Shown one piece after another: positions 3,211 through 64,000 of a stretch of 64,000 nt of DNA. Numbering within the stretch: position 1 is the first letter of the stretch; the number at the start of each line of letters is the position of its first letter. The DNA is from Blasia pusilla (lineage: Eukaryota): positions 42,532,001 to 42,596,000 of the forward strand of contig CM114271.1 of NCBI GenBank assembly GCA_050084515.1, in the 5' to 3' direction. The translations under genes were made by a program, and so were the position numbers. Under the pieces are notes generated by a model. The model did not search any database. It was not told the DNA's origin and saw only the letters and a program-made list of their open reading frames with translations.

Positions 3211-3293
3211 TTCCTACATCATGTCAAGAGCCAAGCAGGTGACTTGAGAGAATAGGTTAGTTACCATGGAGAGAGCTTGGGAGAGGGTAAGGG

Positions 3294-3512
3294 TATACTT
3301 CAAGGAGAGAGAGCTTGAGAGTTCATTCTCTCTTTGTTTAACCTCTTGGCATAAAGCGGCGGAGCTATGGTCCCTTGCCTTGTGAGTGTAACCCAAGCCT
3401 CTCATCAGGAGAGTGAGTTTGGTTTGACATGAGAGAGAGTGCACACCTTTGAGAGCTATGGTGTGAAATGGTGTAGAGAGAGATTGGATCTTATTTTACA
3501 AAGAGAGAATGA
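3294..3512 (+). promoter_or_regulatory. Copy 1 putative TATA-like box, transcript 5' end and self-priming PBS
   Basis: TATACTT at 3294; TCATTCTCTCTTTGT (3323-3337) is the exact reverse complement of ACAAAGAGAGAATGA (3498-3512). Confidence 0.7.
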
Positions 3513-11800: not shown

Positions 11801-12111
11801 GGCGATTGCACAGCATCGGAATACGTTGAGGTATGCAACTATTTGGGGTGGTGGTTATCGACAAACTATTTGGAGGTTTCATCAGGAGAGATTATGTCTA
11901 CTTGCAGTAGACATCACCGACGACGTTGGATGTGACTACAGGGCGCACTATCGTGAGAGTGCGTGACGTTTTGCCATCCGGTGTTCTCTTGTTGGAGGGA
12001 CGCGATGGTATGGTATGGAAGGATCATGTGCATAATTGTGCACCATGTCACCTTCCTAACATTGATGGTCAAGTAGATCCGAGCTTAGCAGTAGTTCATG
12101 CAGGCTTGCGT

Positions 12112-12252
12112 TGTATGTTGTGTGGTTCTGTCCGTGATGCGGCCACGATGCTAGTCTGTGATGGATGTTCGAGAGGTTGGAATATGGCATGTATGACGCC
12201 ACCTCTCACTAGGGTTCCTCGGGGACGATGGATGTGTCCCAGATGTACATAG
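12112..12252 (+). other. PHD finger at integrase C-terminus (copy 1)
   Basis: CMLC...[33 protein letters not shown] (His ligand changed to Asn in this copy). Confidence 0.9.
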
Positions 12253-12429
12253 AGGAGATACTAGGTAGGTTTCGATTCTGAATTTTTCTATGACATGGAT
12301 GACAGGAAGGCGACTAACGATGGGACCACATGAGCACCCGACCTTTTTGCTCTTAGCGTTCTAGAGATGTATGTCGTGATACCTAGGGATAGAGGACTAT
12401 TTGGAGTTAGAGGGACCTAACCACCAGCT

Positions 12430-12566
12430 AGGGGGGTCATTAGAGATATTTTAGTACTTGTTGTCTCGTTGTTTGGATGCCATGAGTTAGCATGGGATCG
12501 TGCGTGTTTGTGTGTGTGTTCGGTGACAGCCATGTATGTTGTGTAGCGATGTGTATGCACATGACA
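12430..12566 (+). repeat. PPT (AGGGGGG 12430-12436) and ~128-bp terminal segment B of copy 1
   Basis: Ends GTATGTTGTGTAGCGATGTGTATGCACATGACA, a tail shared with the ends of copies 2 and 3. Confidence 0.85.
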
Positions 12567-13444: not shown

Positions 13445-14426
13445 TGCGACCCTTATAACCAAACGAGCGCCAAGTGGAACATCAGAACTTTAGCGGGTTC
13501 ACACTAGGATGGTTTGCACGTTGGAGTGGTCTCTTGGAAGAGACACCCAAGACACAAGAAACGAGACTCTGAAAAAGTTGAGCGTTTCATGCATTTATGG
13601 TTGTGACCGGAAAAACTTAACCAAATGTGAACCAAATCTTGAGAGGAATCAAGTTCGGAAAGATTGGTTGCTAGAGAGTGTGAACCGAATTTAGAACCTG
13701 ATTAGCGTTTTTGGGTTTGACTATATTTTGGACCATAAATTTTAGATCATGCATTTGTGACTCGTAACGTAGTATTGGAAAGCTTATGCAAAGTTAGTTC
13801 CAACAAACCAAAGATCTTAGCAAACGCAAAAGTAAAGATTGAGAAACTTTCCAAAAATGACTATATGAGAAGTTGGGTTGAGGGCCAAAAAGAATGGCCC
13901 AAACATCTCTTCCAAAAATTTAGGGGGAGGGTAGAGAACCCCAAAAGTACTAGTAAGGGGGAAGGTCTCCAAGAGTGCTTGGGACTCAAACACCACTTTG
14001 GGGCGCCGCGACTCCGTGAGATGATCCAAGGGCACGAAATGGATTGAGAGTTTTGGCATTGGGATTTGAAATCCTAATCAAGGTCAATAGAGTGGATTTC
14101 GGAGGTTTGCTATTGGATTCCAACCCGTGACTCATTTAGCTAGATCTCCGTTTGGGGCTCATGCAAGGTCCATTGATAATTAAGACCGCTAGGTGCGCAA
14201 ACGCCATTTTAGGTGATTGGACTAACCAAAAAGTTTGTCCCAAGTCTAGGAAGATTGAGGTTGATGAGGTGTTGAGTTGAGAACTCGGTGGGTTATAAGG
14301 CTGATTGACCCAGACCAGACTAATGTGAGTGTGTTTGGGTGTAGATCAGCAGTGAGAGCGTTTCCTACTGAACGTACGCTTCCGCAATACGAAAGATTGA
14401 CGTTCAATAGGAGTAGGTGTACGACA
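13445..14426 (+). repeat. 5' LTR of chromovirus remnant
   Basis: TGCGACCCTTATAACCAAACGAGCGCCAAG...GTACGACA; colinear with 18778-19718. Confidence 0.8.
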
Positions 14427-18777: not shown

Positions 18778-19718
18778 CGTGACCCTCATAACCAAATGAG
18801 CGCCAAGCGGATCATCAGAACTCTAGCCGACCCATGCTAGGATGATTTGCGCGTTGGAGTGGTCTCTTGGAAGATACGCAAGAGACACAAGATATGAGAC
18901 GCGAACAAGGTTAAGTGTTTTATGCATTCATGGCCGCGTCTATGAAACCTGAACTAAATGTGAACCAAGACTTGAGAGGAGTCGTGTTTGGGAAGAGTGG
19001 TTGCCAAAGAGGTGAGAACCAAAATTGGAACGTGATTAGCGTTTGGGATTTTGAATGTATTTTGGACCATAAATTTTAGTTCCAAGATGAATTTGGGACA
19101 AGTAAGATGGCGTTGGAAAGCTTATGCAAAGCTTCTTCCAAAGAACAAAAGATCTTAGTAAATGCATAAGCAGAGGTTGAGAAAATTCTCAAAAATTTTT
19201 TTATAGGGAGTTGAGTTGAGGGCCGAAAAGAGAGGCCCAAATGTCTCTTACTCAAAGATAAGGGGAGGGCGGAGAACCGGATAGTTACTAGTAAGGGGAA
19301 AGATCTCCAAGAGTGCTTGGGACTTAAACACCAAACCAAGTCCAATAGAGTGGATTTTGGAGGTCCTTATTAGATTCCAAGCCGCAATTCATTTATTTGG
19401 GTCTCAGCTTGGGGCTCATGCGAGATCGATTGGACAGTTGGAACCGCTAGGCGTGCGAACGCCATTTTAGCTATCTAGACTAACTAAAAAGTTTGTCCGA
19501 AGTCTTGGAAGACTTGCCCATGTAGAAAAATGAGGAACGAGGAAGGTTTAGCTTGATGAGGTGCCAAGTTGAGAACTTGGTGGGTCGAAAAGCTGATAGA
19601 CCCAAATCAGACTAAGTTGAGTGTGTTAAGGTGCATATAAATAATGAGAGCGTGCTCTCCTAAACGTACGCTTTTGCAACACTAAAGATTGACGTTCAAG
19701 AAAAGTAGGCACATGACA
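18778..19718 (+). repeat. 3' LTR of chromovirus remnant
   Basis: CGTGACCCTCATAACCAAATGAGCGCCAAG...CATGACA; preceded by a purine tract. Confidence 0.8.
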
Positions 19719-21123: not shown

Positions 21124-21283
<160 letters not shown>

Positions 21284-26622: not shown

Positions 26623-28917
26623 ATGGCTGCTGCCGTGAGTTTCCTCCCATCGACGGTGATTCAGCATGGTGGTAGGATCAGTGGACTCTGCGGCGATGGC
26701 GCTTGCAGCGCGGAGTCGCGGAAGTTGGGCTGGGTGAAGGCGCAGAATGTGGCCCCGTTGCCACTCTTTTGGACTTCGAAATCCGCCGGTCGCGAAAACC
26801 CGCAGGGCCGCAGGCGTGGGGGAATTTTGGCTTCAGCCACTCCTCTCGCGGCTGAGACGGAAACGGCAGGGGAGATCGAAGATGTCGGCACTGACGATGT
26901 AAAGCGAGAATCCGAGAAGCCGGCTGAAAGTGCGCAGGCGGCTGCGTCGGGAAGTGGCCTTAATCCGGATCCTCTTCGTCACATTCTTTTTCAGGTAACA
27001 TGACGGTCTAGCGCAATTTCCTTCTGTTGTGGCGATTGTGGAGGCCAAGATTGGGACATCGGTTTGGTCTCGGATGACGAAAGTGTGTGTATGCGTGAAC
27101 GATTTCTCGTCTCACTAGACCCACGACATGACCGTTTCTCGTTTCGTTCCGGTGGACAGAAAGTGTCTACTCAGTCGAGTCACTTATGTAATGAAAGGCC
27201 GAATACATTCAGTTACGGACGGACCAATACGGAAGCAATGAAAGCAATTGGCGAAAATTTCGTACGCCGAATGCCTGACGATGATACACCCTAAAAGATG
27301 ATACATCGTTCGGCAACGCTACAGCACTGCTAGGCAGCTCGCCGCTCCAGCTCTTCCCAGCGATGAAGTGAAACTTCCTGTCAGGCGATGTAGCCGTCAG
27401 CAGATAGGCGGAGGACTTCTGAACTGACATTGTTTCCTCCTGCGTACAGGCTTTCAACTGGGAATCGTGGAAAAGTGACTGCTGGTACGATGTTGTGAAG
27501 GGAACGGTCGATGAATTGGCCGATGCCGGAGTGACGGACGTGTGGTTGCCGCCTGCTAGCCAGTCCGTTGCTCCACAGGGGTACATGCCCAGCAAGCTAT
27601 ACGATCTGAATTCTTCGCAGTACGGTAATGAGCATCAGCTGAAAGAGCTGATCAATGCCTTCCACGCGAAGGGTGTGCGGTGCATTGCCGACATCGTTGT
27701 CAACCATCGGTGCGCGGACGAGCAGGACGAGAGAGGGGTGTGGTGCCTTTTCGAAGGTGGTACTCCTGATGAGAGACTGGACTGGGGACCTTGGGCAATT
27801 GCCAGAGACGATCCCTACTCGGACGGAACCGGCCAGCCTGATACCGGCGATGATTTTGGTGCCGCCCCTGATATTGATCACACCAACGATCGTGTCCAGA
27901 GGGAGCTGATTCAGTGGATGAAGTGGTTGAGGAAAGAGATAGGCTTCGATGGATGGAGATTTGATTTCGCGAAAGGATTTGGAGGAGAATTTGTTGGGGA
28001 ATATATCAAGGGCACTAAACCTGCTTTTTCAGTGGGAGAGTTGTGGACGTCTATGCGATATGGTGATGGCTTAGAATACAATCAAGACGGCCATCGCCAA
28101 GAACTGGTGAACTGGGTTGATGCTACCGGTGGAACTTCGACCGCCTTCGATTTTACGACCAAGGGTATCTTGCAGGAGGCCGTCAATGGTCAGTTGTGGA
28201 GGCTGAGGGATCCCAACAGCAAGCCGCCCGGTATGATCGGTTACTGGCCAGAGAAAGCAGTCACGTTCATTGACAACCATGACACGGGGTCGACACAAGG
28301 CCACTGGGCTTTTCCAAGCGACAAAGTCATGCAAGGATACGCTTACATTCTAACGCATCCAGGAACTCCAAAGCTCGTAAGTGACGAATATCTCTCTTCT
28401 GGGATATACGAGGATGTTGAATCTGTGATATGTAGCAACGAAAAAGCTACACCGAACGCGAGGCTGTATGTTGGATGAATCTTGTGTCCAAAATTAGCGT
28501 TTGTCACGAGCCGCTAGATTCTGCTAGAGCTGGACAAGCGTTGCATTTCAATGGCATTGAATATTTCCATAGAAGGTTTCGGTGCACTAACCTTGCGATG
28601 TTGTACTCCCCTTGCAGTTTTACGATCACTACTTTGAGTGGGGCCTCAAGGACGAGCTGAAGGCTCTCATTACTTTGCGCCGAAAAAACGATATAAGGGC
28701 CAACAGCAAGGTCCACATCATGATTGCTGAAGGCGATTTGTACATGGCTGAAATAGATGATCATGTGATAGTTAAACTCGGACCAAGACTTGACATCGGA
28801 GGTCTTGCACCCTCAGATGAGTACACCATAGCTGCTTTCGGCAAAGACTATTGCGTGTGGGAGAAAGCTCCTATTGCAGAGAAATCACCCCAGCTATCCG
28901 AAGAATCAACTTCCTGA
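26623..28917 (+). CDS. AMY: Alpha-amylase (GH13, plant type), 532 aa; exons 26623-26994, 27450-28376, 28618-28917
   Basis: [26 protein letters not shown], catalytic WRFDFAKG / VGELW / [21 protein letters not shown]; two phase-0 GT-AG introns. Confidence 0.96.
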
Positions 28918-33341: not shown

Positions 33342-34690
33342 GGTTTTTCTTTGGCTCTCTATGCCCCCTCATTTGTGTCCTGATGGGTTTCCCATCCAGC
33401 AAACCGGCACCGCAGCACACTTGCCAACTCCTATTCCCTACTCTTTCTTCATCGTATTTATCTAGTTTTCTTTCGTTTTTTACTTAAATATCCACATCTA
33501 TAGTATAAGAGGAGGAGAGGAAAGTATTTTTTTCTGAAAGAAGTGGAGTTTTATTTTCTAAAGGAGGATATGCTTCAAGATAATAAATTTAATATTTCAT
33601 AAAATTGGAAGAAATTATGCACATTCTGCATGGCCGTTTATTTTTAAAAGATTGGATCTTCTCTAGCATCCATAAAAAGTTCTATCAACATTAGAATTTC
33701 GACTCCGTGCATGGTTAGAGAATACATGGAGTAGAGTTTCAAGATGTCGGAGCCGCTAAAAGATGCGGCGGAGCTGCGGTAACAATATTTACATGGATTT
33801 AGGTTCTTATTTAATGGTGTTGTAGAGTGGAAAATATGGAAGGTAGATACATTGATACTTATGCCAATGCATCGCACGGACACTTTGACTAGGTATTAAT
33901 GAAGGAGGAAAGTGTTTTCAATTTTTTATTAGCAAGAAAATGTTTTCATTAGAACCTCGACCTTGAATGCAACCAAGAGCAACAAAATGTTTCCAAAGCT
34001 CGACCTTGAAGAGAATGGAGATGGGAAATAATACTCTAGGATCACGAGTTGAACATCTCACGCATAAAGGTTTGAGTTATGTTAGCAAACCTCAAATCAT
34101 GGATTTTTTTTCATCTCAATGTCCTATGCAAAATCTTTTACCTTTTCTCTTCTAATGACTAGTAGTAGCAAGTAGTTGTGGCTTGCCATTTCCACCCACA
34201 ACATTAAACTTGGTTGCTATGTACAGGGATAATCGCTAGAATGCTCTATGGTTGAGTTTTGAGCGGCCCTATTTAAAAATCATCTAAACAACATATTTTT
34301 AGGTAGCATGACAATATATTAGCTCACCATGCACTAGTTCACAAGAATAATTTCCTTCTTGTCTTTCTTTGCCTTGTCCTTAAGGCCTCAATAAGACAAG
34401 AAGAGGTCCTTAAGAGGCTCCACCTAAAGGTTGAACACTTCTTTAACTAAAAGATTTATGACGATCAATTTTCTGATAGATCAGTTTTCATCAAGGATAA
34501 TCCTTTTGTCTATCTTTATTTCCATTTATCAAATCAAATGTGAAAGTCAGGAAAATCTTCTTCTTTTCATTTTCAAAAAAGAAATCTCTTTTATTCCCAC
34601 CTCTTCATTCAAAAAATTGAAGACCAAATTTCCCCCCGTCACTTTAATTCCTCTACATCTATATTGAAAAAAAATGTTTAGTGTCTAGCT

Positions 34691-35143
34691 TGTTATATCT
34701 GGGTAGCCGATAGGCCGAGATCTATCGTGGATAGGGCGTAGGAGCCAGCGGACTATCTTGAGTGTAACTTTGTCCCACAGTGTCGGATGAGGTTGAGGAT
34801 AGGTCCATTGTGTCAGGAACGTCGTTTCTGACGACTTTCATGTTGAGGTCTTTTACAACCGGGTGACTTGTTGACCAGGTCACCCGCCCCTGGTAACCTG
34901 TGCGTGCAGGTTACCAAGGGAAGGGCTATTTTTAGGCTATATAAGAGAGGAAGATGGCTTTCCTAAGCCATCTTTCTCATGTTGGGCCGTTGGAGCACCT
35001 CCCTTGTATGTGTGTGAGCTAGGACTAGGGTGCTAGCGTCCGGATTCCTTGATAGCACAGGGTGGACGAGGCTCGATATGCCGATGTAGATTGAGGAGTG
35101 GAGTTTTAGGCCGGGTGTGCCGTTTTTACTACTCTTTATTTTT
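34691..35143 (+). repeat. Repeat A1 (453 bp; contains TATATAA at 34938)
   Basis: Near-identical to 43856-44334 apart from a 26-bp hairpin indel and a few mostly C/T changes. Confidence 0.95.
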
Positions 35144-35157
35144 ACATGAGAAAGATG
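35144..35157 (+). promoter_or_regulatory. Putative self-priming PBS of copy 2
   Basis: ACATGAGAAAGATG is the exact reverse complement of CATCTTTCTCATGT (34969-34982), 31 nt after the TATA start. Confidence 0.75.
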
Positions 35158-36648
35158 TCAGGGGGCTGGTGGGAATTCGTTATTTGCAGGTAGGCAAGCG
35201 AGTTGCCTTGGTCGGGAGCCCCTGGAGACGCGTGTGTGACGTTTTGTGTCATTTTTCTGTTCGGAAGGCCGTGGGCGGAAGCGCTATCCGGTTTTCTTAG
35301 ATTTTGCTGGTACGGATTGATGGGGGACAACAGCCGAGTGTAGCGTGTGGTGGGGTGTCGGTGTACGCAAGTGAGGGTGTCGAGAAAGAGAAGAAAGGAA
35401 ATTTTGGGTCTTGCAGCCGCCGGGGGGCTGTTAAGTAAAGACGGCTAGCTAGGTCGCGGCCGGTCTAGGGTTAGGTCACGGGTGAGGGACGGCAGACGGG
35501 CGCCCCGAGGTGGGAGGAGCGCATAGGTGCGCGCGCCCCCCCTTCCCCCCCCCCCTTTTTCCCCCTCTCACCTCTCTCCTCCCGCAGGCAGGCCACGGGC
35601 CGGACGCCCCCCCATTTATTGCCCTCCCCAAAAGTTGGGGAGGCCCATAGGGGTGCGGGCCAGGCCCTCCCCCCCACATTTAGGGCCCAGGGGCCCGCAT
35701 TGGGCCGCGGACCCAAGTTCTCCCCCCCACTCCAACGTGGTAGCATCGACCATAGTCGGTCGGACAATTGTAGCATACGTGGTTGGCAGGACAGACGAGG
35801 TTAGTCGGGCGAACGTGAGTTGAGATTTGCCGGACATGAGTGGGAGCCGACCAGGGTGAGTCACGTTACATGCCGCGCGTGGAGATAGACAAAGGGGTTT
35901 GCGCGACATGATGTTTTGGGGCGCGATAGGGTTGCGAGAGTTTACGATGGAGGGGCAGTGTGCATGATGCCGACGGGTTTTCCGCATCTGTTGACGGGAG
36001 GATCGACGTGTTGGTCGAGGGGAGTGTTATGTGGCGGAGATTGTCATATGATGTGGAGGAGTGCATATTGACGGTGCAGCAGGTTGGAGGGCGTGATGAG
36101 GTTACCCATTCGAGTCCCTTTTCCCGCACTTGTCGTGTGTGATTGAGAGTGTTGGGTATCGGGTAGTAGCTGGTGCTAGATGGGTGCAGTGATGGTGACG
36201 AGTGTAGATTCTTTTCATGTGTAGCATGTTGGTGGATATACGGCCGTTGCCGAGTAGGGGTCGCGTGTATGACCCGAGAGAGTGTCGCTAGGTTAGGTGA
36301 GTCAGTTGGGAGGCTCATGGTAAGCCCGAGTGTTGAGCGTGCGTGAGGCCGGGTATGTCATCACGAGATTGACATTAGCATAGGTCAGCTAGTGAGGCGT
36401 GTGGGAGACTCTCGGTGAGTCTGAGTGCTTGAGCGGGTGAGACAGGGTTTGTCATCACGGCGTTCTTCCAAGGTTCGAAAGAACGGGGTAGTGCGAGCAG
36501 TGGTAGTGGTGTGACACGGAGTGGAGTGAGATACTGAGGGGTTACCAGTGAGGAGCTCCCTTGACATCCATCCGTGACTGGATCATCATCACTGGACACT
36601 GGGTCTGGTGACGAGATCACCGACAGAGACAGTAGTACTTAGTAGGAG

Positions 36649-39600
36649 ATGGACGACATGGGCCATCGGGGCATGCGTCGTTTCTCGGGTGCAGTGGGCA
36701 CCATCGACTTAGATGATTTCATCCAGGAGTTCGACACATGGTGCGACTTCCAAGAGATACGGACCCCGACACGGTTCAACCCTTTCATGGCATGGAAGGG
36801 GTTGTTCCAGCACTTGGATGGTCCTCCGATGGATGACTACATGGAGTTTCAATCACTATATTCAGTAGAGATCGATGCCTGGAGGATGTATTGGGCTCCA
36901 CTAGTGGTCGCGAGGCATATGATGGGATTGTGAGAGGAGAGAGACCCACACCATCAGCCCGGAGACTAGACGGAGAGGAGGGCAGTGAGACAGGCGATGT
37001 GGCATAGACCTCTGGTGGTAGAGGGCCACCACTTCAGCCCCACAAAGTGGAGTTCTTCCCGGTTGGGGAAGAGCTACCAGGCGTCATTTGACAAGCTGAA
37101 GAGTCTACAGGATTTTCAGCGACGATCGGGTGAGAGTCTGAGAGAGGCATTCACACGTATGAGGAGGCTGATCATTGCTACGTTTGGAGTGACTGAGGCA
37201 CAGTCAGTCCAGTATTGGTACGGGGTTCTGGACCGAGAACTACGGAGGTGAGTCCAAGATGCGGTCTTTGATTTCAAGCCCACATTGAAGGTGATCTTTG
37301 AGTTGTCTGAGCGTATTGAGCTCAACATGAGTGAGGAGCAGGTAGTGACCGCTGGATTTTCTCAAGAGTCGACGGGTCCACAAGCGGCGGTGACCCCACA
37401 AGTGCCACAGCGAGCACCAGTACCACGGGAGCAGGCCAGTGTGCCTAGAGAGCAGGGCGAGTACCGTGAGCCTATGAGGCAACGACCCGCACCTACATAT
37501 GTTGCCCAGCAGGGACATATGTGGTCTTGTTGGACGTGTGGAGGGGCCCATAGGCAGAGAGACTGCCCACAGCATGGGAGAGGACCACCAGCGCCTCCGA
37601 TTGCTCAGGAGCCATAGAGGATGGCCCCACCACAGCACCAGTGTGACCATTGCCATAGATATGGTCACACTAGGGATAGATGTTTTGACCTTCGACGAGG
37701 GGCACGTCCAGAGGTAGGCCGAGGGCCTGGGGACGGTCGTCCTGGAGGAGGTCGGGGAGTTCTTCCTAGACGTGGTAGTAGAGGACCACCACCAGCCAGA
37801 GGAGATGGAGCAGGAACACCAGAGCCGGCGCTTCTCTCACGCATCGATTAGTTGGAGCAGGGGATTGCTGCCATGACGATGATGCAGCTTAGGGAAGGCA
37901 CGGAGCTACGAGCAGCTAGTGTGACTCCGATCTCTACCTCTTACCCTGACCCGGGTGAGGATCTCTCCAGTATGGGATTCATGAGTAGTGCAGCCTGGGT
38001 TGAGGCAGCTGCAGTGGTGACTCGGGGTGCTGCAAGAGGCACCGAGCCATTGAGAGGTGGAGTTGAGATTGACCCACCGGAGGGGACCGATGGGCGGCAG
38101 GCCAGGGTTCCACAATCGTTCACATTGTCGGAGGCACTACACACACCATCGATGGTGCCTCGACGACCAGCGGTGCCTACAGTTCATGCACCTACGTCGA
38201 CCTCACGAGGAGTTAGAGTGACAACTCCTATGCCAGCTCGAGTGGAGTCAGTGTCGACTATAGTGTTGGAGGTGGCCACTAGAGTGAGTCAGACTCCGCT
38301 ATTTTCCGCCTTAGAGTTGGCGACGTTGGGAGTTGGACCAGCTGAGGTGTTCCGGTTGGCCGCCACGTTGTGTGAGCGTGGAGAGATGACTGCTTCTTGT
38401 TCAGAGGTAGTTGAGGAGGTGGTGGACTTGCCCTCAGAGCCGGTGCTTGGGGCGTTCCCCAAAGAGTCATAGCATGCGGCGGCGACGAAGTTGGTAGATA
38501 TGCCAGCTCGACCGGCCATAGAGCGAGCAGTGGTGACACCTGGAGTAGTGTTACTGGATAACCGAGCTGGAGTATTTCGCTTGGTTAGTCCAACGGGGAC
38601 GGTATACCACCCGCAGCGCGTCCTACTTGATTCGGGAGTGCAACCCTTGATGTTAGGGAAGGCGGCGTGTTTAGCGTTGGGGTTACGGAAGGCCGACATT
38701 GAGCCTTGTCCCTTCCAGATACATACCTCAATTGGGGGCGTATCACCCACTCAGTATATGACTCGACAGGAGATTGTTGTCAGAGTCCAGCCAGAGCATG
38801 CGACGGATAGTGCTATGGTGCGCACACGTGCGATTACGACACCAGCTGAGTCGTACGATGTGTTGGTGGGGAGTACAGTGTTATATCCCCTAGGATTCAT
38901 CCTTGACTTCTGGGAGGAGACCGTTGCTCATCGGCCAGGATGGCGGTCAGGTGACGGCCGGATGAGTCAGTTACCCGTGCAGTTTGCGGGACAAGATGGT
39001 CGATCACGAGGCGAGTCTGTGACCACGTTGGCGGCTTTCACAGGTAGTGTTAGCTGGCCAGGAGAGTTGTTGGAGGGAAACGCACATGCGGAGGATGTCC
39101 CAGTAGCGGATAGTCCCACGGAGAGATAGGCCATGGCGGGTGTCTCTTCCCATGTTGGCGAGGCCTCTTCACCATTGCGGGGTACGACTCGGGAGCTCTG
39201 AGAGGAGTGCCAACGACCGTGAGGCAAGCGGCGTGGAGTCATGTTTTTATCCCGAGCAGCGAGAGTCACGTGGCGATCGGGCTCTTGGAGTGGAGACGAT
39301 GACCCCACTAGATACCACACTTTGTGGGCGGTGCCGAGGAGGGTGTTAGGGTGTTAGATCTCTTCGGAGGGATTAGCACCGGATTGGTGCCATATTGCAG
39401 CGGGCATACGGGTGCATCAATACCTTTATGTGGAGAGAGATGTGTGAGCAGTATCATTAAATCACGTGGCAAGATTGGTCCAGAGGTATCATGAGTTGTT
39501 GTCGGATCTGCGATGACGGGGATACCAAAGATACGCTACCCGCCAACATCTCTTTGGTGGGGTGCGGGGATCTAGATAGAGTTGGCACCATTCATTTGGT

Positions 39601-42600
39601 GATTCTTTGGATGGCCATGTCGTGGTCATTCATCATCTGGCCGAGGATTTGGATTGCGGGATCCGAGGTCGGGATGTTTTGGGAGATGTCGCGAGAGTAT
39701 TACGACACTTGGGAGAGTCGATATGTTCTCCAACAGACATTTTGGGAGAACGTGCCGTTGTTGGGAGACACTCGTGCACGTGTGATGACGAGTGTACATC
39801 ATGTGAGGTCTTGGTTGGGACCTGCTGTGTTGTTAGATGCAGCGAGAGTTGGGTCACGTGCCCATCGTCCACGACTGTGGTGGACAAACCTGATACCATC
39901 GAGGTACTGAGTCGAGCCTGAGTGGAGTCAGAGAGCACCACATCTCACAATGGATGCTATTTTGGGCTCAGGGCGTCGATCTTAGGTGGTGACACGGGAT
40001 GATAGACCACCGTTGGCCATGGCCAATAGGGTGGGGGAGTTGAGGGAAGCCTTACCTACGTTGGTGAGCTTCCCAGCATCCCATGCCTTTTGTCAGGGAG
40101 GGCCAGGCATGATTTGGGATGAGGCGATCAAGTATTGGAGGAGCTACAATGATGAGCGCGAGCGCCATGGGGTTCACTACCGGTACTACGGCGGTGCGTG
40201 GATGATTGAGGCATCACGGAGACAGGTGTTGGGGCCGGCGATGGACCTCAACTGTCTCACATGGATAGTTAGCCTAGGTATGGCTGAGCAGAGACGGATG
40301 CGAGTGTCATCCACGCCGTCACGTCCACGAGCTGGACCATTGCCTACAAGGTCTGTACAGGCATTGGCTGGGGGCAAGACGAGGAGAGATAGGCACCCAT
40401 GGACTTCCTGGGACGTCGTTCAAGCAGAGAGTGCAAAGGCGGCTAGAGTAGCACATGTTCATTTTTCGGATGTGGAGCATGGTGTAGGAGGTCAGAGTGG
40501 AGTGGTTGTTGCGGAGGTGGCTAGGATTGCTACATAGCAACCAAAGCCGGAGGTTGCGTCCTCTCCGAGTGAGGTCACGATTGAGACTTGGGAGCCTGTG
40601 ATAGGTCTCAAGTTGATAGGAGGAGAGCGACGGCGAGTTCAAAGGTTTTTGAGAGGGCATGTCAGTTGTTTTGCCTTCAGTATGAGAGACTTGGGTACGC
40701 TAAAGGGTCCCGGGATACGGATTGAGTTGGCTAGTGATACGCCGATCTTTCGTCCACCCTACAGGTATTCTGATATGGAGCGAGCCTTGATTCAGAGTAG
40801 GAGTCAGGACTTGTTGGAGGCAAGACTTGTGGAGTTATCACATGGGGAGTATGCATCTGCCACCGTCATGCCGGCGAAGAAGGATATGCATGGCAATTGG
40901 ACGGATAGGCGGATGTGTGGAGATTACCGTCCTATCAACCGACAGACGAGGTCAGATCGGTATGCCATGCCTACTCCTGAGGAGATCTTTGATGCGGTAG
41001 GGCATGCAAAGATCTTCAGAATTTAAATCTCCAAGCTAGCTATCATCAGCTTCCTATCAGGTTGGAGGACAGGGAGAAGACATCATTCTGGGGGATACAT
41101 CGGTTCGGGAGAGATTGCTTGTATCAGTGGCGGTTCTTACCATTTGGATTGAAGAACGCGCCTGCGGAGTTTCAGAGAGTGATGGATGGGATTCTGGTTG
41201 GCTTGGATTTTGTACGATGTTACATAGATGATATTCTTATCTTCAGTTCCACGGTTGAGGAGCATGAGCGACACTTGGAGGAGGTATTTCGGCGATTGCG
41301 GTTACATGGACTGAAGTTACATCCAGGCAAGTGTAGATTCTTTCAGGAGCAGATTGAGTACTTGGGACACACCATATACCCGAGTGGGTTAGGTGTTCAG
41401 CAGACGAAGGTAGAGGCTGTTGCGCAGATTCCACGCCCTATAGATGTGAGTCGAGTCCGAGCATTTCTTGGACTTGCGAACTTCTATCGACGGTATGTCA
41501 AGGGTTTTAGTGCGATCGCAGAGTCTTTGACCTTGTTGACGAGACTTGATGAGGTGTGGTTGTGGGGAGATGATCAGGAGCGAGCATTTCAGAGCTCAAG
41601 GACAAAGTTGCGTCCTCACCCATTTTGAGAGACCGGTTAGGGGTCGCCCATTCGATTACATACGGATTGGAGCATGTTGGGTCTAGGAGCAGTGCTTACT
41701 CAGAGGGATGACGAGGAGAGGGAGTTCGTTGTGGCTTACACGAGCCGATCGAAAAACATTGCAGAGGCGAAGTATAGCTCCTACGAGGGAGAGTGCTTGG
41801 CTGCAGTGTGGGCCGTGGCACATTTTAGGTGCTATTTATTCGGCAACCCTTTCACACTCATCACTGATCATCAGCCGTTGAGGTGGTTGATGGAGTCCGA
41901 CAAGCTTACGGGAAAGCTTGCCAGGTGGGCTCTATTACTACAGGAGTATGAGTTCGAGGTGGTTCATAGGCCAGGTCGGCTGAACCAGGATGTGGATGGG
42001 TTGAGTCGTAACCCATGTCCGAGTCAGAGAGACGTCACGGGAGCTCGATGGCACGGAGAGAGTGATGAGGAGATGGTGCCCGGTTGGCATGCATCTGCCT
42101 ATCTTTGTTGGTTGACTATAGCGGTCACCATACGGTGATGACTCAGTGGTGGGATTGGATGATGAGTCTTTGGATCCGGAGGTTAGTGAGGAGGCGGCGG
42201 TGGTCGTGATATCCATGACGACGTGGAGGTTGTGGAGTTTTTCAAGACCTTTGGCGTCATTTGAGTACAAAGTGAGTGCTAGGGAGAGGATCGGATCCTG
42301 AGAGAGCCAAGAGGTTCAGGTGGGAGGGGACTCACATTTTACGGGTATGGGGAGATGGTAGGATACGAGTGGTACCTCATCCTTCCCAAATGAAAGCACG
42401 TGTAGTGCGACATGCCCATGAGGAGTTGGGACATTTCGGAGTAAAGCGCACTTACAACTTACCGTGTTCAGATTGGTGGCGCGGCATGCATACTTTGGGG
42501 TACTGTGATTTGTGGCCAGATGTATGGTATGTGACAGAGTGCGAGCATCCTTCAATGCTCCCACTCAGATTACATCCTTTGCCGATTATGGGTTTAGGTT

Positions 42601-43639
42601 ATCGGTGGAGTTTAGACTTTTGGGACCTTTGCCATTGATGGGCGTCATCAGTGCGTGTTGGTCATGGTGGAGCATTTCTCCAAGTGGATAGAGTTGGTGG
42701 CACTACCGGACAAAGCGGCGAGGAACAGCTTATGCGTTTCTAGATCGTGGTGCTTAGTCACTTTGGTGCACCGGCGGAGGTGTTGACCGACAGGGTACCG
42801 AGTTCAGGGGAGAGTTTCAGGCCTTGTGTGATCAGGCCGATAGATCACCGCACCACGCCCGGGATCATCCCGAGGCGGATGGGTTGGCAGAGAGAGTTGA
42901 CGGTGAAGAGAGGATTGCGCAAGTATGGCTTGCAGCGGGGCGATTGAGGGGTGGGACCTACGATTTGCCATGGTTGGCTATGGGTTATCGCTTTAGTCGG
43001 CAGCATCCTTGGCGTCATTTTCACGTACTTTTTGCTCTTTGGGAGAGAGCCAGATTTACCTGCAGCGATTCGACGTGACATGGCGGAGGTGTTAGATCTT
43101 GATGATCCAGATGTGTGGGTGCAAGCATGTTCTCAGACGGCATAAGTTTTTCGTAGAGTTATGCCTATGGCCTTTGAGAACTTAGCTATTGCCCATCATA
43201 GAGATACATTGAGGTACGCGACCATTCGTGGAGGAGGTTATCGTCCAGGGATTAGGAGGTTTCATCCTGGAGATTACGTGTATTTTAGCAAGCGGCGGCA
43301 CCCACGACGCTAGATGTCATCGTAGGGCGCCGCGATCCTACGTGTGCGCGAGGTATTACCGACCGGAGTCCTCATGTTGGAGGGATGGGATGGTATGGTT
43401 TGGAAGGATCATGTGCGCAATTGTGCGCCATATCATCTTCCGAACGTAGATGGGATGGTGGATCCGAGCTTGGCAGTGGTACCTGCAGGCTTGAGGTGTA
43501 TGTTGTGCGGATCTGCGAGGGGTGCAGCCACCATGTTGGTATGTGATGGTTGTTCTCAAGGGTGGGGCATATGTCATGTCTGACCCCCCCTCTTGATGTT
43601 GTTCCCACGGGACGATGGATATGTCCGAGATGTGTATAG
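36649..43639 (+). pseudogene. gag-pol of copy 2, interrupted by many short indels
   Basis: CWTCGGAHRQRDC and CDHCHRYGHTRDRC knuckles, VLLDSG protease, DNMT, YIDD RT, RNase H, integrase, PHD (43497-43639). Confidence 0.95.
39345..40260 (+). other. DNMT3-like methyltransferase domain (copy 2)
   Basis: VLDLFGGISTG (39351), GWPCRG (~39609), ENVPLLG, GSRAHRPRLWWTNL, RRQVLGPAMDLN. Confidence 0.9.
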
Positions 43640-43706
43640 GGTAGTAGGTCATGTTAGAGAGGTGTGATATTTTCTATCTGGAGTTAGGGGGATCCAACTG
43701 CTAGCT

Positions 43707-43853
43707 AGGGGGGCGGTTGTGTGATCTCCATGTATATGTATGAGTTGATTTTTGTACATGTGTGGATCGACCCGTGTGTGGAGAAGATCGGTGTTGTGTG
43801 GTGTAGATGTGACGAGGGATGTATGTTGTGTAGCGATATGTATGCCCACGACA
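43707..43853 (+). repeat. PPT (43707-43713) and repeat B1 (43716-43853, 138 bp)
   Basis: AGGGGGG-CG then GTTGTGTGATCTCC...CACGACA; repeated at 44335-44472. Confidence 0.95.
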
Positions 43854-43855
43854 GC

Positions 43856-44334
43856 TGTCACATCTGGGTAGCCGATAGGCCGAGATCTATCATGGATAGG
43901 GCGTAGGAGCCAGCGGACTATCTTGAGTGTAACTTTGTCCCACAGTGTCGGATGAGGTTGAGGATAGGTCCATTGTGTCAGGAACGTCGTTTTTGACGAC
44001 TTTCATGTTGAGGTCTTTTACAATCGGGTGACTTGTTGACCAGGTCACCCGCCCTTGGTAACCTGTGCGCGCAGGTTACCAAGGGAAGGGCTATTTTTAG
44101 GGGAAGAGCCTTTTGGCTCTTCCCAACCTATATAAGAGAGGAAGATGGCTTTCCTAAGCCATCTTTCTCATGTTGGGCCGTTGGAGCACCTCCCTTGTAT
44201 GTGTGTGAGCTAGGACTAGGGTGCTAGCGTCCGGATTCCTTGATAGCATAGGGTGGACGAGGCTCGATATGCCGATGTAGATTGAGGAGTGGAGTTTTAG
44301 GCCGGGTGTGCCGTTTTTACTACTCTTTATTTTT
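43856..44334 (+). repeat. Repeat A2 (479 bp)
   Basis: TGTCACATCTGGGTAGCC...TACTCTTTATTTTT; separated from B1 by GC. Confidence 0.95.
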
Positions 44335-44472
44335 GTTGTGTGATCTCCATGTATATGTATGAGTTGATTTTTGTACATGTGTGGATCGACCCGTGTGTGG
44401 GGAAGATCGGTGTTGTGTGGTGTAGATGTGACGAGCGATGTATGTTGTGTAGCGATATGTATGCGCACGACA
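44335..44472 (+). repeat. Repeat B2 (138 bp), element 3' terminus
   Basis: Near-identical to B1, ends CGACA, followed by TSD AGCT. Confidence 0.95.
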
Positions 44473-47400
44473 AGCTTCTTTGTAGATAGAATGATATTCA
44501 AATGTCTTTTTATTTTTACCGCAAGTAATCATTTGTAAATATCTATAATTATATTTCCCAATGAATATTTAAACTAGAACAAAAAAATTATATGTGAGAA
44601 AGGAAAGAACATATACAACTACTATTATACTATATATAACTTCAACCTAAGATAATTGATCTTAAGAAAAGAGAAATTTTTCAGTTTTCCCTATTAAGAA
44701 GACCATCGTAGAGTCCATCCTCTACTTCACCAAGCTTCATTCCAAAGTATTTCTGATCTTTAGCTTTGCCAGTAGAAGACTTGGATTGAGTCCCAAAGAC
44801 TCAATCGATTGCACGTTTCATACGTAGCCGAGAACTTCCAGCTGCCAAGTGCTGATCCGGTTGAGTCTCCCCAAGTGCGTGTTGTCTCCTTGGGAAGGCT
44901 CTCCCCAACTCGTTCCCCGGGCCTTGACCAATCTCCTCAAGTCGCTCGCCTAAATCAGAGCACGCTAGTTAATTGCTCAAGGTGTGTCCCTTAGCTCAAA
45001 ATTGAACTAAACACAAATTATAATTAGTTCATGGTTCAAGGGCTTGAGCGGGTAGATTAGGAGAGTGTTCCCCCTATCTAGGTACTTCTAGAGTTCTCTT
45101 AGGAAATCCCACCTTCACCGTTGTCCCCCTCAGGCCTTTGATTTTTGCCCTCAATCCAAACGTAGTTTGCAATGTGCGGATCAATGTTTGACTAGTTATC
45201 CATCAAGATGGTTTGGCAGAGGCTTCTTACAGCTTATTCAACTCTCAGCTCCCCAAATGCATATTGGATCTTGGACGTGCATGTGCCTCATGCATAGCTA
45301 GCGCCCATTGTGACTCCTTGTTTGGTGTCTCATGGTTGTTTTGTTGTCCTTTGCATTTAATGACTAGTCTCGTGGCGTCTAGCCCATCTTAACAACTCAC
45401 ATGTTACTTGCTTCCTTTCCTTCGTTCCCGCGATTACCTTTCTCACCTAAGGCTAGTCACAAGACACGTACGCGTCTGGCCAAGTGTTGGTGCCGCAATT
45501 GATTATGTCGACTTTCCTCACCTTGTGACTAGTTAGTCTAGGTTTCAGCTTTGGTAGATCCCACCAAGGTCTCTCCTCCTTGGACCCACGATCATAACTC
45601 GCTTCCCGGATCCCTGTTAGTGTGGGCGTCATAGACCTAGTTAATATTCATAAGGAAGAATCAAATGATTTTAGTTATATAGAAATTCACCTTTTGAGAT
45701 CTATAATCTTGATTACTTCTAAGAAAGTTTGTGCAATGCAATTACATCTTACAAGACTATGTTAAGTTTTTATTGGTATATAGTTCTCCATTTATCAAAA
45801 TCATAAATGTATTTTTTACTCCTAAAAAATTCTCCAAATTTCATAAGAGATAATTTAAAGAGATGCATAATCATTTCAATTATTTTAGAAGGCAATTTTT
45901 GTAGCAAATACCCTCTTGTCTTTCAATTATAACATCCCTACCCTCTGACAACCCGACTTCCCTTTCCCTTAGGCCACTCTTGCCCTGCTGTCATAGAGTC
46001 TAACTTGTACCTCTCCTTGCTTTGCCCCAAAGCAATCCCAACCTTGAGCCTTGCAAGTGGAAGACATAAATTGAATCCTAAAGACTAAACCCGTTACACA
46101 TTCCCTTAGGTGGGTACAAGGTGGGTGTATCCACCTAAGATTACAATCTTAGGTGGAGACATCATACAAGTTGGCAAAAGAATTGTAAGTGTTTTTTTCA
46201 TGGTGGACCCATTGCAACAAAATATTCAAGATAGTTAGGGATATGAAAACTTGTAAAAAGAAGGGAGACAAAGTGAAAAAAAAAGACAGCAGGTCAATTT
46301 TTCAATATAGCACACCATTCATGGATCACAAGAATATTAAATTCAATATAGAACAATTCTAAGCAGAACATTCAATAAAATATCTAGTCTACTTTTCAGC
46401 AATTCTCTTTAAATTTCAGGTTAGTATAGGGGGGAAAATGCAGTTTGAAAGATGCATCACTTAGTGCATGCAGGGAACTTGTCCCCAGCGTGCTAACACT
46501 AAAAACGCTCTAAGAATGCTTTCGGCCAGACGCGAATGGACGGCGCACCGGTTTCCAATAGACGTTGACACCCAGGAAAAACAATCCTCCGGTGAAATTT
46601 CAAATCTATCGTTTGCCACCTATATTAATCGATAACTTTTCTTACGTAGAGACAAACGATGGCAGTTCTTCCGGACTCCAATCGGAAAGGAGAAACAGGT
46701 GAATCGGAGGGGAGCGTGGTACGGTAGTCGTGCGGAGGACAGCGGGACCAGAAGCCATTTTGTGGCCAGCCCATGCCAACGGAGCGTGAAGCATGGACAG
46801 CAAAGGTGATTGACTCAAACGAGGTCCTCCGGCAACCCCTGTTGGTGCATGAATTTGCCCTCATCTGTCAGTCAGAGACTTCAAGATCGCCACGTCCAGC
46901 CGCCACCAATTATTCATTTCCAATACGGAGAAACCTCGACGAAGAGGAGTATAGACGCCGGCGGAGGGGCTCTCGGGACGGACTAAGACGACGAGTTGAT
47001 TCCTTGATTGGAACCGCGTTGCCACAAAATTGCAAGTCGACCACGCACGTTGGAAGTATACGATATGGCACATTCTCTACGCGGAGACGAACGAAGCAAA
47101 TGTAAAGGAAATCTTGGTTGCTTTTCTCGTAGGGTCATTCCAGGGTGAAATGTTGTAAATCTCGATCGGCTTCTCCTTGAAGTAATTCTAGATACTGCAG
47201 GCATGTCCGTAGTTCAGTTGATTCTGGCGTGGATCTGTGGTAGTTGACGTCGCCATGCCGACTGAGAAGGATTTGCTTTTTCACAGATGGCGTAGCGAGT
47301 CTCTGAACTACATATTGAATGTTGAGGATCCCCTGATCATCGCCGAGAAGTTCTCATTACCGTTGAGTTAAACTCATATTGACCATTATTTCTGAACATT

Positions 47401-51848: not shown

Positions 51849-54767
<2,919 letters not shown>

Positions 54768-54990: not shown

Positions 54991-55568
54991 TTAATTAAAT
55001 TAAATTAATATATTACCAAGGCCTCATTAAAACCAACCCTAGGAGGTATAATATTATATTAAAATATAATTAATTAATTAATTAAAAGAAATAAATTAGT
55101 AAAATTTTATTTCCTAGGAGAATGAAGGAATCCACAATATCTTGTAAATTTTCTAACATTTATTAGGAAATCAAGAATATGAAATTATTTCAAAAAAATA
55201 ATAATATAACTATAAAATAAATTCATGAATAAGAAGTAAACCTAATACAAAAATAAACCATTAAATTAAATCAAACATTAAATATTTGGGAATAGAAGAC
55301 GGAGTCCAATAAAAGTTTGAATATAGATCATTAACATTAAACAATGAAAAAAGGTAGTAAAATTTAAATATCAAAGAGTAAATGAAAATGAGTACCATCA
55401 TGAATAATTAGGAAATGATAATATATTTATAATAAATTTTTTTCCACAAAACAATCCATCTTGAGTACGTCCGAGAATCACTAAACCTAATATAAGTAGA
55501 CCTAGAGTTCATTGAAAAAGAGCAAACAAAAGAATACAATATTCACTGGTTTGTTTCCTGGCTTCCCC

Positions 55569-55924
55569 TCATTGTGAATCCAACTCTACGTCTGCTCCAC
55601 GCGTAACAACTACGACAGCCTTCATCTGGGCAACCCCGCACATCCCACCTGGATCCTCCATATCTCTGGAGGCTCTATAAGACATCGATGCCACAGATCC
55701 GGCTTCGGGTAACCTCAATGCCATAGCGACATTCTGCTGCTGTATCTGAGTAGCCATACAAGCCTCACTCCCGGCGTCTCCCTTGATGCATATAGGTGGT
55801 GGGACTCTAACTCCTCCACAAGCAACTCCACCATCCCCTCGGGAAAATCCAACTCCTCGTCCCCCAACGGGACTACCTGGTATACGACCTCTAGGCCAAC
55901 CCGGACCGGCAACTCGTTCTGGTG
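55569..55924 (-). mobile_element. Gag-linker fragment of another member of the same family, the insertion target of copy 3
   Basis: Homologous to ~6312-6672 and ~62275-62635 (ATQIQQQNVAMALRLPEAGSVAS). Confidence 0.85.
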
Positions 55925-56923
55925 TGTCGTGCGCATACACATCGCTACACAACATACATCGCTATCACTAAGCACACACACAAATATGCACGATCCCATG
56001 CTAACTCATGGCATGAGTTAGCATGGGACAAGAAGTACCAAAATATCTCCAATCGCCCCCCTAGCTGGTGGTTAGGTCCCTCTAACTCCAGATAGCCATC
56101 TATCCCTACCTACCATGACATACATGTCTCGGACGCTAAGAGCAAGAAGGCCGGGTGCTCATGTGGCCCCATCATTAGTCGCCTTCCTGTCATCCATGTC
56201 AGAGAAAAAGTCGGGATCGAAACCTACCTAGTATCTCCTCTATGTACATCTGGGACACATCCATCGTCCCCGAGGAACCCTAGTGAGAGGTGGCGTCAGA
56301 CATGCCATATGCCAACCTCTCGAACAACCATCACAGACTAGCATCGTGGCCGCACCACCGGCAGAACCACATAACATACAACGCAAGCCTGCATGAACTA
56401 CTGCTAAGCTCGGATCCACTGTACTATCAATGTTAGGAAGGTGACATGGTGCACAATTACGCACATGGTCCTTCCATACCATACCATCGCGTCCCTCCAG
56501 CAAGAGAACACCGGAGGGCAAAACGTCACGCACTCTCAGGATAGTGCACCCTGCAGTCACATCCAACGTCGTCGGTGCCGTCTGCTGCAAGTAGACATAA
56601 TCTCCTTGATGAAACCTCCGGATAGTTGGTCGATAACCACCACCCTGAATAGTCGCATACCTCAACGTATCCCGATGTTGCGCAATCGCCAAGTTCTCGA
56701 ACGCCATGGGCATCACTCTCTGAAATAACTCATCCCTCTGAGAACATGCTCGGTCCCATACATCTGGGTCATCAAGGTCCAACACCTCACCACCATCTCG
56801 ACGAATGGCCGCAGGTAAATTTGGCTCTCGGCCATAAAGTAGCAAGTACGGTGAAAAAGACGCTAAGGATGCCTGCCTGCTGAATCTGTATCCCATCGCC
56901 AACCATGGCAACTGGAGGTCCCA

Positions 56924-57330
56924 CCAGCCTTCGGCCCTTCTTTGGTTTTACCAAAAAAGGACCAAAAAACAAAATTATATTTTTCAAACTTTTTTGCGGC
57001 CTAGGCCTCGGATAAAGAAAAAAGAAAATCAAAAATAAAAGTGAAGTAGAAAATTTTATTTTAGGCACGTAATGCTCAACCCGATAGGCGAGAGGGGTAG
57101 AAAAATCTATATTTTTTCCGCTACGTGCCTTCTTTCTTAGCCATTTATAGAAGTGTCGGACCTGCGGGCAGAAAATGTCAAAATTTTTTTTTTTTTGTAG
57201 AGTATATTTCCAGAAACTTATCAGAATCGTCCCTTTGTTTTGTCTAACAGTGTCTGGCCCTTTTTTTGTCAGAAAAAAAATTTTCCCGACCCGCAGGGCC
57301 TCTCCCGCGGGTATCGTCCCCTTTGGCCAA
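56924..57330. other. ~400-bp foreign AT-rich insertion in the integrase of copy 3
   Basis: Splits HLGD|WDLQ, which is contiguous in copy 1 (CTAGGAGATTGGGACCTCCA); no clear TIR or TSD. Confidence 0.7.
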
Positions 57331-60059: not shown

Positions 60060-60995
60060 CATGTCAAGCAGTTCAGGTCCATCGCCTGACCCAAGACATG
60101 GCGTTGTGATGCCTCTGACATTGACGGTACTGCCATCACTTTGTGGGAAATCCCATCGCTCGCTCTCTCTCGTCGGCGTTGGGCTCCACTAACCGCTGAA
60201 CGTGGTCATCCTAAACCAAGCCAGGACCGGCCTCCTTGTATGCATAGGAAGCGGGAAAACTCACAAACGTGGGCAAGGCTGCCCGTGGCCTGCCTACCCT
60301 ATTGACCACAGTCAAGGGTGGTCGATCATCGTGCCTCGCAGCTTGTGATTGACGACCTGGATCTAGAATGGAATCCACTAACAAATAGGAGGGGCGCTCC
60401 ACTCTCGCATACGCCCTCCGTAATACCGCATGGGGCACCAAGTTGGTCCACCATAGACGCGGGCGATGGGCTCTAGAACCTACACTTGACGCATCCAAGA
60501 ACACTGCTGGGCCGATCCAGGCACGCACCTGATGAGCACTCGTCACCACCCGTGACCTGGAGTCTCCTAAGATCGGCACATTCTCCAGAATGTAGGCTGG
60601 AAAATGAGACTGGTGCTCCTGCAACTACCGTAAGACCCTCAACATCTCCCAAAACAACCTGGACCGAGTGTCAGCCAACTCGCTGCCTCGTCTAGCACTC
60701 GATTGGCCCTGACATGGCCAACCGGCAATGACCAAATCAATGGTCCCTACCCGCTCTAAGTCCTACGCCCCCAACAACGAAATATCCCTCAGTAGGGAAC
60801 TCTGGTAACCCTGTATTGCGGACGTAGAAAATAAGTCGGGAAAACGTAGGCATAACTATGCCACATGTCGTAGTGAGACGCGCCTTGCAACATCATCACT
60901 CTCCACATACAGTCTTTGTTGTACTCGCACTCTGCTGCAAAGCAAAGAGCTAACCGGTGCTAATCCCTCCAAAGAGATCTAACACTCGAATACCC
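60060..60995 (-). other. DNMT3-like methyltransferase domain (copy 3)
   Basis: IRVLDLFGGISTG, IAGWPCQGQS, ILENVP, GSRAHRPRLWWTNL, ERERAMGF, HVLGQAMDLN. Confidence 0.9.
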
Positions 60996-63900: not shown

Positions 63901-64000
63901 CGTGATGACCCTCGTGCCCTTCTCACCCGATCACTCTTGCCTCGCGAGTAATCCCTCAATCACTCATCCCAAACATGCGGCACTCGATCTACACTCTCCC

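Follow-up and report, generated by a model that had tools for sequence, protein, structure and literature searches.

The Tf1 element of Schizosaccharomyces pombe primes reverse transcription with the first 11 nt of its own mRNA. Self-priming of this kind has been described for Tf1 and for Tj1 of S. japonicus (PMC4600332, PMC6317226) and has been predicted for the plant Tcn1 (mosses, club-mosses) and TAR lineages, 12% of the elements surveyed (PMC6317226). A separate group of retrotransposons, Ngaro/PAT, has split direct repeats in the order A1…B1-A2-B2 (PMC4157794; PMC7192593), and KnitGypsy-Dnmt3 is described as combining DIRS-type repeats with Gypsy domains (de Mendoza et al. 2018; PMC5890265, Fig. 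4c legend). Here we analyze a retrotransposon family found in a 64,000-nt stretch of the Blasia pusilla genome (GenBank assembly GCA_050084515.1, contig CM114271.1, positions 42,532,001–42,596,000 of the forward strand), hereafter the window, whose positions are numbered from its first letter. The elements are Ty3/gypsy-type with split repeats A1…B1-A2-B2, and they match the published KnitGypsy-Dnmt3. At the end of repeat A they carry a pair of complementary arms that probably functions as a Tf1-type self-priming signal.

Three copies lie in the window: copy A (34691–44472), copy 1 (~3016–12566) and a copy on the minus strand. The layout of copy A was obtained by self-comparison of the window and is as follows.

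34687–34690 (+): left target-site duplication, AGCT; the same 4 nt stand at 44473–44476
34691–35143 (+): repeat A1, which starts with TG and contains the TATA box and the 5′ arm
34938–34945 (+): TATA box TATATAAG, read from the sequence, 31 nt before the 5′ arm
34969–34982 (+): 5′ arm, the predicted first bases of the element RNA and proposed self-primer
35144–35157 (+): 3′ arm, the proposed primer binding site; the A1/A2 homology ends one base upstream of it, at 35143
35158–37851 (+): long leader, with no Pfam match in its open reading frames (ORFs)
37852–43640 (+): degenerate coding region, its frame broken into many ORFs
40993–41628, 41641–42138 and 42276–42635 (+): reverse transcriptase (RT), RNase H and integrase zinc-binding domain, respectively (Pfam)
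43703–43713 (+): polypurine-tract-like AGCTAGGGGGG, just upstream of B1
43716–43853 (+): repeat B1, ending in ACGACA and 97.8% identical to B2
43854–43855 (+): 2-nt spacer GC, separating the CA that ends B1 from the TG that opens A2
43856–44334 (+): repeat A2, with a copy of the 5′ arm at 44160–44173 and a 26-nt palindromic insert
44335–44472 (+): repeat B2, abutting the end of A2 exactly
44473–44476 (+): right target-site duplication, AGCT

The 5′ arm of copy A, CATCTTTCTCATGT, is the exact reverse complement of the 3′ arm, ACATGAGAAAGATG, at 14 of 14 positions, and the match extends on neither side. When the upstream repeat was shuffled and the longest complement to the bases around the repeat end was taken, a complement of at least 14 nt was obtained in 0 of 5000 shuffles, the maximum being 12 nt. 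A1 and A2 are 92.9% identical over 479 alignment columns, including a 26-nt indel. A2 retains the 5′ arm and then runs into repeat B, without a 3′ arm, so the 3′ arm is situated just outside the repeat, where a primer binding site is expected. If the end of A is made by reverse transcription, the coincidence of the 3′ arm with the end of the A1/A2 homology marks the position at which minus-strand synthesis starts, and the stop of the homology at the arm argues against primer binding further downstream. An Rfam scan of 34600–35600 gave no matches. The 26-nt palindromic insert lies at 44103–44128, just upstream of the TATA box of A2; it is absent from A1 (at 34937) and, judging by loose ends in the RNA and DNA runs described below, is present in most copies of the family.

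Copy 1 has the same signal in a different sequence. Self-comparison revealed no internal repeat in it, and no A2 was found for it in the window. Its features, together with the third copy, are listed here.

3016–3497 (+): A-like 5′ region of copy 1, with weak homology to A1
3323–3337 (+): 5′ arm of copy 1, complementary at 15 of 15 positions to 3498–3512
3498–3512 (+): 3′ arm of copy 1, the proposed primer binding site, following CTTATTTT
12426–12566 (+): AGCTAGGGGGG tract and repeat B at the 3′ end of copy 1, with no A2-B2 after it
55925–64000 (−): third copy, with 89% identity to copy 1; the 5′ end, where the signal would lie, falls outside the window

The two arms of copy 1 are exact reverse complements without extension, and none of 5000 shuffles produced a complement of 15 nt or more (maximum 10). 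A TATACTT starting at 3294 precedes the 5′ arm by 29 nt, the distance from 5′-arm start to 3′-arm start is 175 nt as in copy A, and a TTATTTT tract lies directly upstream of the 3′ arm in both copies. No TGG was found within the first 23 nt after repeat A in any of the four lineages compared below. The first-pass annotation of this DNA had drawn attention to the 14-nt complementarity in copy A, to the same layout with another sequence in copy 1, to arms about 30 nt after a TATA box, to the TTATTTT tract and to the lack of a TGG-type site after A1, and all these descriptions were borne out.

The arrangement recurs outside the window. Metagenome contigs were scanned with an RT/RNase H alignment, which gave 80 loci; the 51 longer loci were compared with themselves and the 29 short ones left out. 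The full order A1…B1-A2-B2 was present in 10 of the 51 (L006, L020, L031, L037, L044, L047, L048, L057, L061 and L071, among which L047 and L048 are near-duplicates), A1 and A2 were cut by the contig end in two (L017 and L034), and only the B-A-B 3′ end was seen in nine. Alignment of the 5′ ends divided the relatives into two groups, T (13 copies) and S (5 copies), with RTs 44–52% and 64–79% identical, respectively, to that of the window. The majority sequence of the 13 group T 5′ ends contains the arms TAGTTTTTCTAGAATT and AATTCTAGAAAAACTA, which form a perfect 16-nt complement, and the 5′ arm starts 30–31 nt after TATAAAAG. The primer site of group S, ACTCAAAGAAC, begins at the end of A and complements GTTCTTTGAGT, 32 nt after TATAAAG.

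Thus four lineages, two from the window and two from metagenomes, display a TATA box, 29–32 nt, a 5′ arm, 132–175 nt, the end of A and a 3′ arm, in this order. The TATA-to-arm distance is 31 nt in copy A, 29 nt in copy 1, 30–31 nt in group T and 32 nt in group S; the complementarity spans 14, 15, 16 and 11–14 nt, respectively, and each lineage has its own arm sequence. Relative to the end of the A1/A2 homology, the 3′ arm starts at +1 in copy A, at +1 in group S (with one ambiguous base) and at −3 in group T. The bases that follow A differ completely between lineages, yet they match the 5′ arms of their own lineage. Cross-lineage alignments by MAFFT lost the register of the arms, and a script-made table of pairs anchored at the end of A was used instead, in which copy A, copy 1, L031 and L017 each stood for one lineage. 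In an 11-pair helix, 44 of the 44 cells pair (43 Watson-Crick and one G:U), while sliding the partner by 1–3 nt leaves only 18–26 pairing cells, and 9 of the 11 helix positions carry at least two types of pair across the four lineages. Because the lineages are too diverged for base-by-base homology, this pattern is best read as four independent realizations of one design. The covariation between subfamilies that had been claimed earlier is upheld as recurring in-register pairing, not as classical covariation in an alignment.

RNA folding from the 5′ arm to the 3′ arm, with z-scores against shuffles, gave minimum-energy and centroid structures closed by the arm helix in all four lineages (copy A, −69.5 kcal/mol, z = −2.0; copy 1, −60.8 kcal/mol, z = −1.9; L031, −41.5 kcal/mol, z = −4.9; L017, −49.8 kcal/mol, z = −0.4). 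A consensus fold of seven group T copies retains the helix, which is almost invariant within the group. In an alignment-free test of 13 elements, a complement within A1 was sought for the 50 nt around the A1 end, with 1000 shuffles each. The longest complement was 14 nt in copy A and 16 nt in L031 (0 of 1000 shuffles for both) and 11 nt in L020, L061 and L057 (1, 2 and 6 of 1000, respectively); in L017 it was 9 nt (50 of 1000), the A1 end of this locus being placed too early since its A2 is cut.

From these sequence comparisons, we consider that the arm pair is a Tf1-type self-priming signal for reverse transcription in a split-repeat Ty3/gypsy-type family, with a probability of about 0.72. 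The earlier suggestion that these elements self-prime gains support from the four lineages that share the layout and pair in register with different arms. In the proposed mechanism, transcription would start ~30 nt after the TATA box of A1, at or just before the 5′ arm, and the 5′ arm of the RNA would fold back on the 11–16 complementary bases directly following A1. RNase H would then cut at the 3′ edge of the paired 5′ arm. The primer may carry extra bases at its 5′ end, so that a start slightly upstream of the arm would still be compatible. The start site, the cut and the priming event are what we infer here; the new 3′-OH would be extended through the transcribed part of A to give a strong-stop DNA of ~130–175 nt, which would transfer to its counterpart in A2, close to the RNA 3′ end, and plus-strand synthesis would be initiated from the G-run tract just before B1.

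RNA and DNA reads bear on some of these steps. Three raw RNA-seq runs with the same species label (153, 136 and 166 reads) and one DNA run, used as contigs, were compared with 34541–35500 at a likeness of 85% or more. All of A was covered by RNA reads, and none fell in the unique flank 34541–34668. Transcription across both downstream junctions is observed: B1-GC-A2 is spanned by 10, 12 and 11 RNA reads and A2-B2 by 9, 7 and 10. Transcripts thus carry a complete downstream A, to which the strong-stop DNA could transfer, and other copies share the A2|B2 joint. In X22 and X23 the depth over the transcribed part of A is ~2 times that over its upstream part, an ambiguous step with which a start site at the predicted position of ~34969 would be compatible. 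Among the variants listed (a further 153 stand outside the list), none falls in 35144–35157 and only 34970 falls in the 5′ arm, while the flanks vary; the variant at 34970 is frequent in RNA reads and accounts for 10 of about 415,000 in DNA depth. An excess of plus-strand first mates over the transcribed part of A in X21 and X22 was considered as a trace of minus-strand DNA and rejected, the share over the leader being similar in X22. In the DNA run, word depth reaches ~3.8e5 over A (34701–35148) and falls on the 35149–35500 side, over the first 100 nt of the leader, to ~2e4, 2e3 and then a few hundred, which means that A either greatly exceeds the leader in abundance or is much better conserved. 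By the word depth of A, the family is very abundant in the host.

A number of observations weigh against self-priming. In the alignment-free test, 7 of the 13 elements were not significant (L006, L034, L037, L044, L047, L048 and L071), and the longest uninterrupted Watson-Crick stretch in the individual group T copies measures 16, 8, 11, 8, 8, 7, 7, 7, 5, 4, 11, 11 and 12 nt, so that only 5 of 13 copies have a run of at least 11 and many relatives have lost the pairing. The complementarity anticipated in other copies is seen in two further lineages, not in every element. The boundary of the repeat in copy 1 is set by similarity only, without an A2. Group S has a second, similar partner site ~84 nt further on, ~116 nt after the TATA box, and also a direct copy of the core of its primer site, CTCAAAGAAC, between the TATA box and the 5′ arm; this copy and the arm form a perfect 10-bp local hairpin (L061, 4255–4301; L017, 4259–4305), which would compete with the priming helix if transcripts start further upstream. 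The arms themselves are of low complexity, purine- or pyrimidine-rich. In the three raw RNA-seq runs, no place near 34969 rose above threshold as a start of reads, and the depth step in X21 is due to one divergent expressed copy that aligns only at 34953–35006. The relatives are old copies, with A1/A2 identities of 79–91%, and changes within groups are mostly one-sided; the decay in group T consists mostly of one-sided transitions, with a deletion in L044. In the group S locus L004, the arm changed from TTTGAG to TTCGAA and the primer site from CTCAAA to TTCGAA, which makes two compensated pairs, to which we give little weight because the changes are transitions at a possible CpG.

The same complementarity could arise for other reasons. 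The helix might be a structural element of the leader, like the retroviral stems that flank a primer site, or a signal for packaging, dimerization or translation, while a transfer RNA (tRNA) or a tRNA fragment primes downstream. Copy A, copy 1 and group S do have a TGG 24–27 nt beyond A, which speaks for such a site, but its surroundings differ between lineages and none lies within 40 nt in group T. Moreover, a primer bound at least 24 nt downstream would extend the A1/A2 homology to the position of its binding, whereas in each of the three lineages possessing an A2 the homology breaks off where the complementary arm begins. The lack of a TGG in the first 23 nt after A and the lineage-specific bases found there are indirect arguments against a tRNA primer. 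ARAGORN, applied to the window and all 80 loci (~0.85 Mb), found a single tRNA gene, Phe-GAA, which did not match; one gene makes too small a set to count against a tRNA primer. A leader structure of this kind is an unlikely explanation. We consider it slightly more unlikely that the complementarity acts on DNA during the rebuilding of the split repeats, for instance by bridging cDNA ends, as proposed for the internal complementary region of DIRS-1. The repeat layout is indeed one known from tyrosine-recombinase retrotransposons (PMC5890265), but no strand-transfer scheme was found that joins the actual ends (B end to A start, A end to B start), the arms match neither junction, and a primer with its binding site would be expected just where they lie, at the boundary of A and 29–32 nt after a TATA box.

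That the arms match by chance in sequence of low complexity, or are the terminal inverted repeats of a small DNA transposon inserted in the repeat, is very improbable. The base composition noted above favors chance, and so does a loose pattern scan (TATA, 26–36 nt, an arm of at least 11 nt and its complement 90–280 nt downstream), which recovered the known cases together with ~12 other matches as against ~8 per shuffled replicate and which we do not count as evidence. Against it stand the 0 of 5000 shuffles in each of two copies and the same layout with other sequences in two more lineages. The reading as a miniature inverted-repeat transposable element, or as terminal inverted repeats in general, is ruled out by A2, whose lack of a 3′ arm means that the pair does not represent the two ends of one insert.

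The protein domains place these elements apart from Tf1. Pfam detected RVT_1, an RT-linked RNase H, an integrase zinc-binding domain, rve and a C-terminal PHD finger, and the Gypsy order of RT, RNase H and rve integrase is seen in all three window copies. No tyrosine recombinase was matched among the 94 ORFs scanned (18 + 76), in which rve and the zinc-binding domain were found instead. An ORF of copy 1 upstream of RT, 8064–8303 (+), matches the C5 cytosine DNA methylase domain (PF00145, E = 3.3e-9), which Pfam detected neither in the minus-strand copy nor in copy A, the latter being more degraded; the domain is carried by some relatives, including Marchantia and metagenome proteins. The PHD finger (PF00628) occupies the position of the chromodomain in copy 1 and the minus-strand copy, as well as in many of the relatives listed; the domain at 11911–12249 (+) and 56240–56947 (−) is common in the precomputed domain lists of relatives, and PF00385 was noticed only in P0101 among the 120 relatives listed. 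The closest protein relatives are from liverworts, namely Calypogeia fissa (78%), Marchantia polymorpha (73%, with the methylase domain) and Riccia; the RT is 73–78% identical to liverwort proteins versus 52% to those of Klebsormidium nitens. Many metagenome proteins combine RT, RNase H, integrase and PHD finger with or without the methylase, and the named matches outside the family are mostly metazoan Ty3/gypsy proteins at 42–47% identity. The label "Tf1-like" given in the first-pass annotation accordingly suits the proposed mechanism and not kinship, for the elements have a PHD finger in place of a chromodomain and split direct repeats in place of plain long terminal repeats (LTRs).

Comparison with the described systems can be drawn out further. 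As in Tf1 and Tj1 (PMC4600332, PMC6317226), the primer site by the 5′ repeat complements the 5′ end of the element's own RNA, here a predicted end; Tf1 and Tj1 have no tRNA-type site, and the present elements have no TGG in the first 23 nt after A. The elements differ from both in their arms of 11–16 nt, the PHD finger and the split repeats. The Tf1/sushi-Tcn1 chromoviruses have a chromodomain where the present elements have the PHD finger. Tcn1 elements are chromoviruses with ordinary LTRs and TAR elements are copia-type (PMC6317226), unlike the present family, and Marchantia, liverworts, Klebsormidium and methyltransferases go unmentioned in the main text of that survey. KnitGypsy-Dnmt3 shares with the present elements the Gypsy domain set, a cytosine methylase inside Pol and A-coding-B-A-B repeats (PMC5890265). 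The words "primer binding," "circular," "target site" and PHD finger do not occur in the main text of that paper, which contains neither the primer site nor the polypurine tract, the 2-nt spacer and the 4-bp duplications found here, and the text of a 2026 preprint that mentions streptophyte Gypsy-DNMT3 has neither "self-prim" nor "primer binding." Ngaro/PAT elements share the repeat order but use a tyrosine recombinase and have no DDE integrase, whereas rve, the zinc-binding domain and 4-bp duplications are found here. Self-priming itself is already known and widely predicted in plants; this family and the split-repeat context are absent from the literature searched. Self-priming frees an element from the host tRNA, and it has so far been tied to Tf1/sushi-Tcn1 chromoviruses and TAR copia elements. 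Its occurrence in a separate streptophyte Gypsy lineage, with a PHD finger and sometimes a methylase, would point to either an independent origin or an old inheritance.

With the primer site and the polypurine tract located, the split repeats can also be interpreted in a fixed frame. Of 9 relatives inspected, 8 have a G-run immediately upstream of B1; the B1 boundary reported for L037 lies within B, and the base preceding B is unreadable there. In the same eight relatives B2 comes immediately after A2 and opens with the base that follows the tract, and the last base of A is the one preceding the primer site. All 9 elements examined have CA at the end of B, the 2-nt spacer, TG at the start of A and short inverted ends. 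The 4-bp flanks are identical in four of the nine (AGCT, CATA, ACCT and ATAA), match at 3 of 4 bases in four and at 2 of 4 bases in one, with L047 outside this count. A canonical LTR equal to A-B, or to X alone, was ruled out, there being no B after A1 and no A before.

Two-jump reverse transcription from these sites would, we infer, yield B-A-internal-B-A, as opposed to the integrated form A-internal-B-A-B. One possibility, which we offer tentatively and regard as doubtful, is that the family is reverse-transcribed as an ordinary LTR element whose LTR is B-A and is then integrated in a circularly permuted form. For this, the two ends of B-A-internal-B-A would be joined to make a circle, which would open again at the B|A junction. 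The A2|B2 joint would then unite the base before the primer site with the base after the polypurine tract, as in a two-LTR circle or a head-to-tail dimer, and the DDE integrase would cut both strands after CA in CA-NN-TG, releasing an A…B-A-B molecule whose 3′ ends are recessed and which could then insert with the 4-bp duplications observed. If this were true, a DDE-integrase retrotransposon would use a circle or tandem junction as its integration substrate, and a route would be given by which DIRS-like split repeats arise from an LTR element. The permuted relation between the product and the integrated form makes such a DDE-integrase origin of the DIRS-like layout testable.

Copy 1 and the minus-strand copy both stop at the end of B, without A2-B2; either B1/B2 recombination or a one-LTR circle may have produced them. 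In register, the 4-bp sequences flanking copy 1 are mismatched (TCGG versus GGTG), and GGTG stands on both sides if the 5′ boundary is moved by 2 nt. The 3′ end of the minus-strand copy is immediately followed by a 380-nt fragment, 55546–55924 (−), 79–81% identical to an internal segment of the family (62247–62634 (−) and 6312–6698 (+)), and the arrangement is probably a nested insertion into an older copy. A repeat pair elsewhere in the window, 13448–14426 and 18781–19718, showed no clear TGG-type primer site.

Several short sequence features of the family were also noted. In copy A, a local palindrome at 34951–34974, AAGATGGCTT / AAGCCATCTT, extends over the first 6 nt of the 5′ arm and has an upstream half similar to the primer site, a relation with a clearer equivalent in group S, and copy 1 has a weaker version of the group S TATA-to-arm hairpin, as does copy A at 34951–34974. 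The motif GCGGAAGCGCT, followed by a T-run, occurs in the leader of copy A (35275–35285) and twice in copy 1 (3666–3676 and 3801–3811), and has been kept although the two leaders have otherwise diverged. Repeat B of group T (L020, L031, L044, L057 and L071) starts with ATACATGAGAA, which shares 9 nt with ACATGAGAA (35144–35154) in the primer site of copy A, a likeness that may be a coincidence.

The following features of the window lie outside the family.

27423–28478 (+): ORF with an alpha-amylase catalytic domain
761–836 (−): tRNA-Phe(GAA) gene
21127–21282 and 52559–52670: two long dinucleotide microsatellites with a mutual match in inverted orientation

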